DNA of 44,051 nucleotides from Escherichia phage Rao1: sequence record PQ221054; one strand, 5' to 3'. The notes beneath the pieces are model-generated. The model was not told the origin of the DNA, made no database searches, and worked only from the letters and a program-made list of their open reading frames with translations. Within the stretch, counting starts at the first letter, position 1; every line of letters starts with the position of its first letter. The translations under genes were made by a program, and so were the position numbers. This document shows, piece by piece, positions 13,486-13,976 of this stretch.

Positions 13486-13529
13486 ATAGCACTTTTTGTT
13501 AAAGACGTGTGGCAGGGATTTGCTATTAT
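13486..13529 (+). promoter_or_regulatory. Conserved box copy P5 (GATAGCACTTTTTGTTAAAG) with TATTAT hexamer
   Basis: TTGTTA 13496-13501, 22-bp spacer, TATTAT 13524-13529; conserved ATCGAAACGAG leader follows. Confidence 0.55.
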
Positions 13530-13568
13530 TACTTTATCGAAACGAGATGGATTATAGAGGTAAGCAAA

Positions 13569-13709
13569 ATGATTTTAATTGGTATGCTGACCGCTTTTTT
13601 CTATTATGCTACAGGTCTAACCTTTTGGGTATCATTAGGTGCAGCCATAGGCGCTTACTTCGTATCTGCTTTGCTTGCTTTAATTGTGATAGCGCTGCGT
13701 AATCGCTAA
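13569..13709 (+). CDS. Small membrane protein (46 aa, two hydrophobic segments)
   Basis: MILIGMLTAFFYYATGLTFWVSLGAAIGAYFVSALLALIVIAL; GAGG RBS; downstream of box P5. Confidence 0.4.
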   Translation: MILIGMLTAFFYYATGLTFWVSLGAAIGAYFVSALLALIVIALRNR

Positions 13710-13727
13710 AACGAGAGAGAAAACAAA

Positions 13728-13976
13728 ATGAACAACGTTAAAAATATCATCAAACTTACTGCTGCTCTTGGTGCTTTCTACCTGGCAATTCAGATTGTCA
13801 ACCCAACTGGTGGCGCAACCGCAAACTCTGATGCAATAAAGTATGAACATGAATTTAATAGTGCATATTCGCATTGTGAAAAAGTAGCTGGCGATAAGAC
13901 AAACCAGATTCTGCACTATGGTCGCGAAGTGTGCACCGAAGTTGCTCACAACATTGTAAAAAACGAATCAAAGTAA
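13728..13976 (+). CDS. Small secreted or membrane-anchored protein (82 aa)
   Basis: N-terminal hydrophobic segment IIKLTAALGAFYLAIQIV; GAGAGAA RBS. Confidence 0.45.
   Translation: MNNVKNIIKLTAALGAFYLAIQIVNPTGGATANSDAIKYEHEFNSAYSHCEKVAGDKTNQILHYGREVCTEVAHNIVKNESK

Follow-up and report, generated by a model that had tools for sequence, protein, structure and literature searches.

The window analysed here, i.e., the whole 44,051-nt stretch of DNA from Escherichia phage Rao1 (sequence record PQ221054), comes from a phage of the Braunvirinae (Drexlerviridae). Between its major tail protein (MTP) gene and its tail assembly chaperone (TAC) genes lies an interval, here called the slot, which holds two small open reading frames, ORF46 and ORF82, and a copy (P5) of a repeated box; in the slot region, the window shares 99.8% identity with phages TR2, TR3 and CY1. 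The initial annotation had placed both small genes and box P5 between the MTP terminator and the chaperone gene, and every one of these elements was confirmed at its position. The features of the region are:

12796-13455: major tail protein (MTP) gene (Pfam Phage_tail_3, E 8e-67)
13460..13485, + strand: intrinsic terminator 3' of the MTP gene, a AACCCTCTTCGGAGGGTT stem-loop (stem 13460-13477) followed by a T-run, from a terminator scan
13486..13502, + strand: box P5, ATAGCACTTTTTGTTAA, a T-type copy of the Drexlerviridae 21-nt repeat
13521-13529, + strand: extended -10, TGcTATTAT, with the hexamer TATTAT at 13524-13529
13536..13545, + strand: conserved leader motif ATCGAAACGA, from an alignment of the box copies
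13556-13561, + strand: Shine-Dalgarno sequence (SD) AGAGGT, upstream of ORF46
13569..13709, + strand: ORF46, MILIGMLTAFFYYATGLTFWVSLGAAIGAYFVSALLALIVIALRNR, from the ORF list and hydropathy
13728..13976, + strand: ORF82, 82 aa, from the ORF list (phrog_22925)
13728-13823, + strand: putative ORF82 signal peptide, codons 1-32, Sec-type by inspection
13824-13973, + strand: putative mature part of ORF82, 50 aa, with two predicted helices
13954..13982, + strand: sigma-70-like promoter candidate, TTGTAA-17-TATAAT, 10/12 consensus matches
14012-14326, + strand: TAC G gene (Pfam Phage_TAC_4, E 1e-32)
14317-14323, + strand: slippery heptamer A AAA AAC, with sequence and frames read directly
to 14640, + strand: chaperone T part, in the -1 frame (Pfam DUF1799)
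14639..14668, + strand: intrinsic terminator 3' of the TAC genes, from the terminator scan

No credible Rfam match was found in 13300-14800. The left border of the slot is the MTP terminator, which is conserved in all Braunvirinae compared; its stem is identical in ES, IMM-001, TR1, Rtp and the remaining Braunvirinae loci. Box P5 (TTGATAGCACTTTTTGTTAAAG, + strand) starts 83 nt ahead of the ORF46 ATG and is an imperfect palindrome, TAGCA-N5-TGTTA. The window carries 14 copies of the box, where 0.58 would be expected by chance. A 21-nt direct repeat with the consensus aaATAGCACnnnTTGnTAAAA has been reported for TLS, T1, Rtp and Rogue1; in TLS it is oriented with transcription and lies about 76 nt upstream of start codons, and its role was left undecided, a stoperator, an enhancer site or an UP element having been proposed (PMC11447400). 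P5 fits the description and the consensus of this repeat.

In P5, the -10 hexamer begins 38 nt past the first base of the box, with the centre of the palindrome near -42 and a predicted transcription start at about 13536. The offset from box start to hexamer is exactly 38 nt in 11 of the 14 copies and within 1 nt of that in two more. Such a fixed offset favours the box being a promoter element at the position of a class II activator, and P5 probably has promoter activity. The leader motif ATCGAAACGA is common to most box promoters. Box and -10 at the slot are kept in every Braunvirinae compared. Non-Braunvirinae relatives carry an extended -10-like sequence before the TAC genes at the position of the slot box, as seen in the four gaps inspected. 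The literature yielded nothing usable on Drexlerviridae transcription start maps.

The terminator scan found no terminator-like site between the end of ORF82 at 13976 and the TAC start at 14012, and the first intergenic terminator-like site downstream of ORF82 is the one at 14639. With no terminator between ORF82 and the TAC genes, the predicted unit runs to 14639 and would not be autonomous. The region could be described as a hyperplastic cargo slot heading the Braunvirinae TAC transcription unit, in which a composite promoter (the palindromic box near -42 plus the extended -10) would restart transcription at about 13536, after the MTP terminator, to give a transcript in the order box, ORF46, ORF82, G and G/T chaperone genes, ending at the 14639 terminator. 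The candidate promoter TTGTAA-17-TATAAT overlaps the 3' end of ORF82 and is directed toward the TAC gene; other Braunvirinae have an equivalent TTGCAA-17-TAGAAT, and vB_EcoS_CEB_EC3a has an annotated promoter there. The initial annotation had described an autonomous promoter-gene unit, a description that is not supported here, as the box is a family-wide repeat at a position where relatives appear to have their TAC promoter, and no terminator follows ORF82. The late region of T1-type phages has been described as a chain of terminator-flanked 'transcriptons' (PMC11447400); given this organisation, a terminator and a promoter at the slot represent normal architecture rather than a hallmark of morons.

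ORF46 encodes 46 aa with a GRAVY of 1.57, and its 43 consecutive uncharged, mostly hydrophobic residues precede the first charged residue, R44. This length would suffice for two helices forming a hairpin in the membrane, the RNR at the C-terminus being predicted to be cytoplasmic. Of the double-TM peptide in the initial annotation, the hydrophobic ORF at 13569-13709 stands, while the two TM segments rest on the hydropathy of the uncharged run, not on a topology predictor. No lipobox (L-x-x-C) is present, and ORF46 has no Cys at all. ORF46 was found only in TR2, TR3, CY1 and two Logan contigs, all in this slot, and in phiA2-1 at another locus; the GenBank records of TR2 and CY1 have no annotation for it. 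A word-indexed protein search returned 1 identical protein, and IMG/VR had zero matches to a degenerate DNA pattern that encodes the motif TAFFYYATG of ORF46. Four metagenome matches to this motif were rejected as unrelated proteins that share it by chance.

The phiA2-1 homologue of ORF46 has 89% amino acid identity with a dN/dS of about 0.23, the frame being kept at two genomic locations, while a 51-codon frame overlapping ORF46 is broken in phiA2-1 by a 4-nt indel. Judging from the frame kept at two loci and this dN/dS, ORF46 is more than a chance ORF. It also matches phrog_16572, weakly (E 1.2e-4), a family without assigned function. Among near-identical genomes, SNPs cluster in ORF46, at four sites only, and the coding ones are non-synonymous, e.g., I41R in CY1. 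The genomes compared with TR3 for whole-genome SNP density are mosaic.

ORF82 was annotated initially as an 82-aa protein with an N-terminal signal-like segment, and Sec-type features are indeed present in the gene at 13728-13976. By inspection, the segment has the layout of a Sec signal peptide for signal peptidase I (SPase I), i.e., a positively charged n-region (K5, K9), an h-region (L10-V24, KD15 up to 1.9) and small residues at -3 and -1. The c-region reads NPTGGATA and then NS, with NPTG as a helix breaker, and cleavage is predicted after A32 (ATA, then NS). Among 12 homologues compared, A32 (-1) is invariant and the -3 residue is A, T or S. Two Cys, C50 and C69, are invariant. A lipobox (L-x-x-C) is absent from ORF82, the first 49 residues having no Cys. 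Conservation in the protein is highest over residues 1-28, which is unusual for a cleaved signal peptide, and this conserved N-terminus could serve as a membrane anchor or resemble a signal-anchor-release (SAR) segment. An AlphaFold2 model of modest confidence (pLDDT 67.6) has helices at 2-24, 30-54 and 57-81, and a simple hairpin would not bring C50 and C69 face to face.

ORF82 was found at full length in 81 phage records, all Braunvirinae, and in the same slot wherever this was checked. It is the standard slot occupant in most Braunvirinae and is not sporadic. A profile search of 1.84 billion representatives returned one cluster only, and a word-indexed search 8 close homologues. Its retention in 81 records, its dN/dS of 0.2-0.3 and its match to phrog_22925 (E 2.4e-28; a family without assigned function) indicate that ORF82, too, is more than a chance ORF.

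Presence or absence of the small genes in relatives, a check proposed in the initial annotation, follows a division, with the slot empty outside the Braunvirinae in the relatives surveyed and its cargo differing within the Braunvirinae. The gap between the MTP and TAC genes is 39-125 nt and holds no gene in T1 and in the non-Braunvirinae IMG/VR loci with a working gap estimate (a few loci for which the estimate failed were left out), and a geneless gap is found in about 70 other Drexlerviridae-like contigs. By comparison, 7 Braunvirinae loci with ORF82 have a gap of about 397 nt, Rtp with its rtp34 has one of 515 nt, and the gap in the window measures 556 nt. In Rtp, AugustePiccard and TR1, the slot holds a lipoprotein gene unrelated to ORF82, with the lipoboxes LLAGC in rtp34 and LTGC in the TR1 protein; slot cargo differs between TR1 and CY1, although both are members of one genus. 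All three cargo types (ORF82, the lipoprotein and ORF46) are envelope-targeted. A literature search on rtp34 found nothing usable.

Because the gap is geneless in the roughly 70 Drexlerviridae-like contigs, ORF46 and ORF82 are not tail assembly factors. The comparison supports the small genes being dispensable add-ons to the tail module; the earlier statement that canonical tail assembly does not require them agrees with the absence of ORF82 from non-Braunvirinae loci that share the MTP and TAC genes, with its replacement by another gene in Rtp, AugustePiccard and TR1 and with its export signals. ORF82 occurs both in JeanPiccard, which targets LptD, and in IME253, for which FepA is the reported receptor. 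The idea that slot cargo tracks the outer-membrane receptor was rejected, as LptD phages hold either an rtp34-like gene (AugustePiccard, Rtp) or ORF82 (JeanPiccard).

The only other copy of ORF46 outside the slot, phiA2-1 GP45, lies at a different locus in a box-promoted unit. The window matches ES, IMM-001 and TR1 as far as the box, and from the -10 to ATGAACAACGTTAAA it resembles phiA2-1; from the -10 rightwards, the promoter is of the GP45 type and not of the type found at the slot in ES, IMM-001 and TR1. The 15-nt ATGAACAACGTTAAA is common to the start of ORF82 and the start of phiA2-1 GP46. Between the box and the -10, the spacer is a poor match to either parent, in a junction analysis that includes one donor-like sequence. 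These patterns suggest that ORF46 is a rare and recent arrival that moved in with its -10 and leader from another locus. It was probably gained when this lineage recombined with a box-promoted unit of the kind that precedes the phiA2-1 lysis region, with the left junction at the box and -10 and the right junction within the 15-nt ATGAACAACGTTAAA. The gene start ATGAAYAACGTWAAA was considered as a repeated linker, and the window has one copy only.

The initial annotation had called the genes typical of morons. What stands of this is dispensable extra DNA, missing at the same position in related phages and represented by alternative cargo; unlike the moron archetype, the slot genes would share their predicted promoter with the TAC genes and have no terminator of their own, the next intergenic one lying beyond the TAC genes at 14639, their GC is not deviant and ORF82 is not sporadic. 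The GC content of ORF46 (40.4%) and ORF82 (39.8%) is close to that of the adjacent TAC G (40.6%) and T (40.9%) parts, the window mean being 43.7% (SD 3.9% in 250-nt windows). Expression from a repressed prophage, another moron criterion, is not applicable since the phage is virulent. ORF46 and ORF82 are real accessory genes and represent a familiar kind of phage feature, not a new one.

Among known systems, the HK97 gene 15 moron (Juhala 2000; Cumby 2012; PMC3594210) is like the slot in being extra DNA in the tail cluster beside the chaperone genes, and its product, too, is a small protein of the envelope with no part in building the virion. HK97 gp15 resides in the inner membrane, where it blocks DNA entry while leaving the receptor unmasked (PMC3594210), which is the mechanism favoured for the slot proteins. 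No similarity of the slot proteins to Pfam families or PDB chains was found. In T4-type phages, PeSL cassettes consist of small non-essential ORFs flanked by a terminator stem-loop and a promoter, and recombination between copies inserts, deletes or replaces their cargo (PMC2839356, PMC4122927). The slot resembles these in its conserved left arm of predicted terminator, box and predicted promoter, in its three cargo states and in the left junction of the proposed ORF46 transfer. It differs in that its motif is a palindromic box near -42 plus a -10, of unrelated sequence, and not a strong -35/-10 promoter; moreover, it occurs in another phage family, with one transfer event reconstructed in the Braunvirinae slot.

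The slot proteins also resemble, as small envelope products, known exclusion proteins, although no sequence or fold similarity to these was found. Virulent coliphages exclude other phages by means of T4 Sp and Imm, T5 Llp, T1 Cor and Rtp45, which the infecting phage produces and which work in the envelope; each is a small product with a signal peptide, a membrane protein or a lipoprotein. Lipoproteins of the Cor, Llp and Rtp45 type match the receptor, and their genes neighbour those for receptor-binding proteins. ORF82, unlike these, is encoded elsewhere, occurs with different receptors and has no lipobox.

A TAC-unit cargo slot with accessory genes, a transfer of ORF46 and envelope-directed products is considered the probable explanation of the region. 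ORF82 would be exported by Sec and cut after A32, leaving in the periplasm a protein of 50 aa with two helices and two Cys, and ORF46 would insert into the inner membrane as a hairpin. Both could alter the envelope of the infected cell, the likeliest effect being that DNA entry of related superinfecting phages is blocked after they have bound their outer-membrane receptor. This functional part, envelope modification and most likely exclusion at DNA entry after receptor binding, is put forward tentatively. Neither protein has a homologue of known function in Pfam, NCBIfam, PADLOC, PHROGs, PDB sequences or Foldseek (PDB, BFVD). An exclusion benefit within a virulent phage family is plausible and is not required. 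More speculatively still, the Drexlerviridae box might be a portable promoter (with a dimeric activator near -42) and recombination linker that shuffles small ORFan cassettes between early and late regions of virulent T1-like phages. The slot would then gather a new class of envelope proteins, namely a periplasmic mini-protein (ORF82), the rtp34 lipoproteins and a membrane hairpin (ORF46), all of which would stop the DNA of related phages from entering once the receptor is bound, whatever its type.

The slot proteins could instead serve some other host takeover or counter-defence at the envelope (envelope defence systems, colicin protection, membrane physiology) with no phage exclusion, a reading with which the envelope targeting of all three cargo types, the presence of ORF82 independently of the outer-membrane receptor and the ORF46 SNP cluster, compatible with a host-interaction gene, agree; we regard it as unlikely, given that no PADLOC or other family match indicates a specific target and that the SNP cluster comprises just four sites. 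Somewhat less likely again is an accessory role in lysis timing, with a holin- or antiholin-like ORF46 and a periplasmic or SAR-type regulator ORF82 tuning the triggering of the holin at 39417. Such a role would fit phiA2-1, where the homologue of ORF46 is the first gene of a unit that immediately precedes holin, lysozyme and u-spanin, and it would fit the N-terminal segment of ORF82, which is weakly hydrophobic, highly conserved and followed by a short helical periplasmic part, a layout that recalls T4 RI. However, the phiA2-1 GP45-47 unit is separated from the holin gene by a terminator, ORF46 ends in RNR and lacks a charged, hydrophilic tail at the C-terminus, and searches by sequence and fold found nothing similar among lysis proteins; in the window, whose annotated holin, lysozyme and u-spanin lie at 39417-40500, ORF46 and ORF82 are 25 kb away from the lysis cassette, and a lipoprotein gene can take the place of ORF82. 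Two specific lysis assignments were rejected separately. ORF46 has the hydrophobic core of a holin, but its tail is only RNR, no endolysin is adjacent and no PHROG lysis match was obtained. A two-component spanin, in which ORF82 would be the i-spanin and rtp34 the o-spanin, is incompatible with the two being alternatives in the same slot that never occur together, with a periplasmic part of just 50 aa in ORF82 and with the u-spanin of the phage.

Improbable, too, is that ORF46 does nothing itself, being a chance or decaying ORF on a transferred promoter fragment or a leader peptide that modulates ORF82 expression. Its 46 codons, the two lineages known, the missing GenBank annotations and the non-synonymous changes among near-identical genomes, including I41R, would fit this. 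Against it stand a good SD at the right spacing, the 89% identity and low dN/dS across two loci with the overlapping frame broken, the weak PHROG family match and an extreme, unbroken hydrophobicity that chance would hardly produce. Least probable is that the genes encode factors for tail or virion assembly that are specific to the Braunvirinae, ORF82 then being a conserved part of the tail module. The position of ORF82 inside that module in 81 genomes and its probable co-transcription with the chaperone genes would fit this, but its Sec-type signal peptide is at odds with tail assembly in the cytoplasm, about 70 Drexlerviridae-like contigs with the same MTP and TAC genes lack it, Rtp, AugustePiccard and TR1 have a lipoprotein gene in its place, and the G and G/T pair, slippery site included, needs no ORF82 to be complete.

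The slot is a place where otherwise conserved genomes gain and swap small genes directed to the envelope, and ORF46 would be one concrete, reconstructed transfer through the repeated box promoter. If the box is a portable promoter or linker, it would be a siphovirus counterpart of the T4 PeSLs. If ORF82, the rtp34 family or ORF46 block infection, they would represent new receptor-independent exclusion factors, useful for phage-resistant production strains; if they do not, what remains is a commonplace slot for accessory genes that are ORFans. Fermentations of E. coli are notoriously prone to contamination by T1-like phages, which also find use in phage collections and therapy. TR1 and CY1, among the closest relatives of the window, were isolated from fermentation broths.

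The region between the major tail protein (MTP) gene and the tail assembly chaperone (TAC) gene, here called the slot, is an accessory and exchangeable cargo site inside the predicted chaperone transcription unit of Braunvirinae. In the window, it holds the genes for two predicted ORFan envelope proteins, ORF46 and ORF82, driven by a putative promoter that belongs to a known, uncharacterised, family-wide box (the copy here is termed P5). The 2-kb stretch around the slot shares 99.8% identity with Escherichia phages TR2, TR3 and CY1_Cui-2023 (Drexlerviridae, Braunvirinae; CY1 is classed in Christensenvirus) and 80-92% identity with other Rtp-like phages.

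Local gene order around the slot
First in the local order, before MTP; + strand; tail terminator protein gene
12796-13455; + strand; MTP gene (Pfam Phage_tail_3)
13460-13485; + strand; stem-loop with T-run that closes the MTP gene (terminator scan)
13486-13502; + strand; box P5, ATAGCACTTTTTGTTAA
13569-13709; + strand; ORF46, preceded by an AGAGGT Shine-Dalgarno sequence
13728-13976; + strand; ORF82
13954-13982; + strand; sigma-70-like promoter candidate, TTGTAA-17-TATAAT, overlapping the last codons of ORF82
14012-14326; + strand; tail assembly chaperone G (Phage_TAC_4)
to 14640; + strand; -1 frame extension of chaperone G (DUF1799)
14678-17656; + strand; tape measure protein gene

At its 3' end, the gene for chaperone G carries a canonical -1 slippery heptamer, A AAA AAC (14317-14323), leading into the DUF1799 frame; in GenBank records, the DUF1799 part stands as a protein of its own, 'TfmS' (83 aa), that starts at an internal ATG. 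Public annotation of this region is unreliable, as ES names the ORF82 homologue 'exonuclease' and the MTP 'tail assembly protein', TR3 labels the MTP 'major capsid protein', and IMM-001 carries spurious overlapping CDSs (e.g., 'phosphoribosyl-ATP diphosphatase').

Slot occupancy was surveyed in 80 IMG/VR loci gathered via MTP by measuring the gap between the stop codon of MTP and the start codon of TAC; frame interruptions or overlaps made the gap estimates of a few loci unusable. In the non-Braunvirinae loci of this survey the gap was 39-125 nt, with a terminator and a short promoter-like stretch and no gene, and phage T1 matches this pattern. Seven Braunvirinae loci showed a gap of about 397 nt with an ORF82 homologue as the sole content, while the gap is 515 nt in Rtp, with rtp34, encoding a 128-aa protein that bears a lipobox (MKAIIAIMATLLLAGC), and 556 nt in the window, with ORF46 plus ORF82. 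By tblastn, ORF82 was found in 81 phage records, directly 3' of the MTP gene in every locus inspected. The rtp34-type lipoprotein gene is the cargo in Rtp, AugustePiccard and TR1, and TR1 and CY1 carry unlike cargo within one genus. The exchange has sharp flanks: TR1, ES, IMM-001 and the window are similar through the terminator and the box, the -10 and the leader CATCGAAACGAAATGA are common to TR1, ES and IMM-001, and the likeness between the window and TR1 resumes some 25 nt ahead of the TAC start codon. Because relatives have a slot with no gene or with other cargo, ORF46 and ORF82 are not conserved tail assembly factors; the proposal of the initial annotation that they are not required for tail assembly is thus upheld, strict conservation in such a role not being what the genome comparison found. 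A virion role for the two products is very unlikely.

The box, the 46-aa hydrophobic ORF and the 82-aa signal-bearing ORF were all found as the initial annotation had described them. The ORF46 product has 43 uncharged, mostly hydrophobic residues followed by RNR (GRAVY 1.57). The N-terminus of ORF82 has what appears to be a textbook Sec signal layout, with an n-region (K5 and K9), a hydrophobic core (L10-V24), a helix breaker (NPTG) and then A-T-A, N-S; the 12 homologues compared all have A32, and A, T or S at position -3. C50 and C69 are both invariant, and AlphaFold2 modelled the signal helix plus two helices with modest confidence (pLDDT 67.6). Every pair tested for ORF82 had dN/dS of 0.2-0.3, and ORF82 is under purifying selection. 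The alternative that ORF46 is spurious has to be set beside a dN/dS of about 0.23 against its sole diverged homologue, where a 4-nt indel interrupts the alternative 51-codon frame that overlaps ORF46; judged by sequence, both ORFs behave as genes. Comparison with the near-identical genomes TR3 and CY1 over about 4.5 kb gave nine SNP sites, four of them within ORF46 or immediately before it (13564, 13653, 13671 and 13690), and the three of these four that are coding are all non-synonymous (A29T, L35V and I41R); for this cluster, selection and relaxed constraint are indistinguishable, and the genomes are mosaic elsewhere.

The box itself is not new, as it is already known from TLS, where re-annotation described a 21-nt repeat, aaATAGCACnnnTTGnTAAAA, at 21 sites along the direction of transcription, about 76 nt before start codons (PMC11447400). 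T1, Rtp and Rogue1 have the repeat too, and a stoperator, an enhancer site or an UP element has been proposed as its function (PMC11447400). With at most one mismatch, the box pattern ATAGCACTTTTTGTTAA has 14 copies in the window vs. 0.58 expected.

Box copies in the window
+ strand; 1463, 2380, 4036, 13486, 28744, 31476, 32999, 35490, 37830, 39040
minus strand; 26300, 27092, 43101, 43911

A -10 hexamer (at least 5 of 6 positions) begins exactly 38 nt after the first base of the box in 11 of the 14 copies and within 1 nt of this distance in two more, the copy at 31476 being without a -10; most copies then carry a conserved leader, ATCGAAACGA. The box is a palindrome (TAGCA-N5-TGCTA) with its centre near -42 when the -10 hexamer is set at -12 to -7. 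A centre near -42 is the classical class II activator position, and the arrangement would suit a dimeric activator better than it would the UP element or stoperator proposed for TLS. For P5, no acceptable -35 was found at 16-18 nt and a sigma-70 scan did not report it; the fixed -10 offset, the palindrome near -42 and an extended -10 (TGcTATTAT) lead us to accept it as a likely, putative promoter.

The initial annotation had taken the two genes and their promoter for an autonomous unit, and here the comparison goes against it. All Braunvirinae compared have the P5 box at the slot position, and the printed non-Braunvirinae gaps have an extended -10-like sequence (TGTTATAAT, TGTAATAT and TGTAAAAT) directly after the MTP terminator and before the TAC gene, so P5 is not private to the two small genes; the terminator scan found no terminator directly after ORF82. 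From these two points, the unit is predicted to run P5-ORF46-ORF82-G-G/T (the chaperone gene and its -1 frame extension) to the terminator at 14639. In other Braunvirinae the sigma-70-like candidate of 13954-13982 is kept in the form TTGCAA-17-TAGAAT, and the record of vB_EcoS_CEB_EC3a annotates it as a promoter. Since the late region of T1 has been described as a series of terminator-flanked 'transcriptons' (PMC11447400), a terminator plus promoter in the structural region is the normal layout here. The moron reading is therefore only partly supported: among the criteria of Cumby et al., the extra DNA relative to relatives is the one that was found, whereas an own terminator and deviant GC were not (slot cargo 40%, TAC genes 41%, window 43.7 +/- 3.9%), an own promoter is ambiguous, and prophage expression is inapplicable to a virulent family. 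The unit functions as a moron slot would, yet is no textbook moron. In evolutionary terms it is closer to the PeSL system of T4-type phages, where small non-essential ORFs are shuffled by means of the repeated terminator-promoter cassettes on either side of them (PMC2839356).

By blastn, no part of the region other than the promoter is widespread in Drexlerviridae. ORF46 was found at the slot in TR2, TR3, CY1 and two Logan assemblies, with one further copy elsewhere and no others. This copy, GP45 of phage phiA2-1, follows a 379-aa gene and a box and heads a three-gene unit closed by a terminator just upstream of the lysis genes (holin, lysozyme and u-spanin); the tail slot of phiA2-1 holds ORF82 only. 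From the terminator through the box, the window aligns with its closest relatives lacking ORF46 (ES, IMM-001 and TR1), and from GCTATTATT (the -10) via the leader, ORF46 and the downstream RBS to ATGAACAACGTTAAA it aligns with the GP45 unit. The 15-nt ATGAACAACGTTAAA is the start of ORF82 and also of phiA2-1 GP46. ORF46 thus appears to be a recent immigrant in the slot. In the simplest reading, which draws on one donor-like sequence, it would have been brought in by a double crossover between two box-promoted units, with one crossover on the left, within the promoter, and one on the right, within the short gene start common to both. GP46 and GP47 (2643-3031) of phiA2-1 are small paralogues (phrog_4788, unknown function), and the window keeps a GP47-like gene only (39115-39288), which follows the box at 39040 and closely precedes the holin gene.

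For ORF46 and ORF82, there was no match in Pfam, NCBIfam or PADLOC, PHROGs returned only families of unknown function, PDB sequence searches were empty, Foldseek against PDB and BFVD gave a best E of at least 0.16, and a profile search of 1.84 billion representatives returned one cluster, the family itself. The slot cargo is all predicted to be envelope-directed (periplasmic mini-protein, lipoproteins and inner-membrane hairpin). Masking of the receptor by ORF82, as with Cor, Llp or Rtp45, is unlikely because the phages that carry ORF82 differ in their outer-membrane receptor (LptD for JeanPiccard and, as reported, FepA for IME253); LptD-targeting phages carry either ORF82 or a lipoprotein as cargo. 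The favoured model, which we put forward tentatively, is that the slot proteins would instead interfere with a later shared step of infection, DNA passage via the periplasm and inner membrane; HK97 gp15 acts on a later DNA-entry step, and its gene also adjoins the tail chaperone genes. Another envelope takeover or a counter-defence role is an alternative for products of this kind, as is a role in lysis timing, at which the location of the phiA2-1 homologue of ORF46 hints, although a terminator intervenes there.

The 20-nt spacer from box to -10 often forms a short hairpin (e.g., CCGGAGAAATCCGG and CCCAGAGAAATCTGGG), and one copy, GCCCTTCGGGGCTTTTG, resembles a terminator placed inside a promoter; these hairpins lie at 1480-1500, 37847-37866, 43060-43084 (- strand) and 4053-4080. 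T1 has 17 box copies in total, including one at 15086 (minus strand) and an inverted one in the MTP-TAC gap (18834-18850, minus strand), which has a TAAGAT hexamer at the usual spacing on the minus strand, pointing back to the MTP terminator. In the window, the box at 4036 lies between the genes for the small terminase (3515-4039) and an HNH endonuclease (4108-4614; names from the TR3 annotation), the latter inserted before the large terminase gene, and is a further box that heads an inserted gene in a conserved module. Two adjacent, TTGCA-rich 47-nt direct repeats (43929-44022) lie near the right end of the window, and two sites far apart, 127-201 and 27214-27264, have AT-rich (TTA)n tracts.
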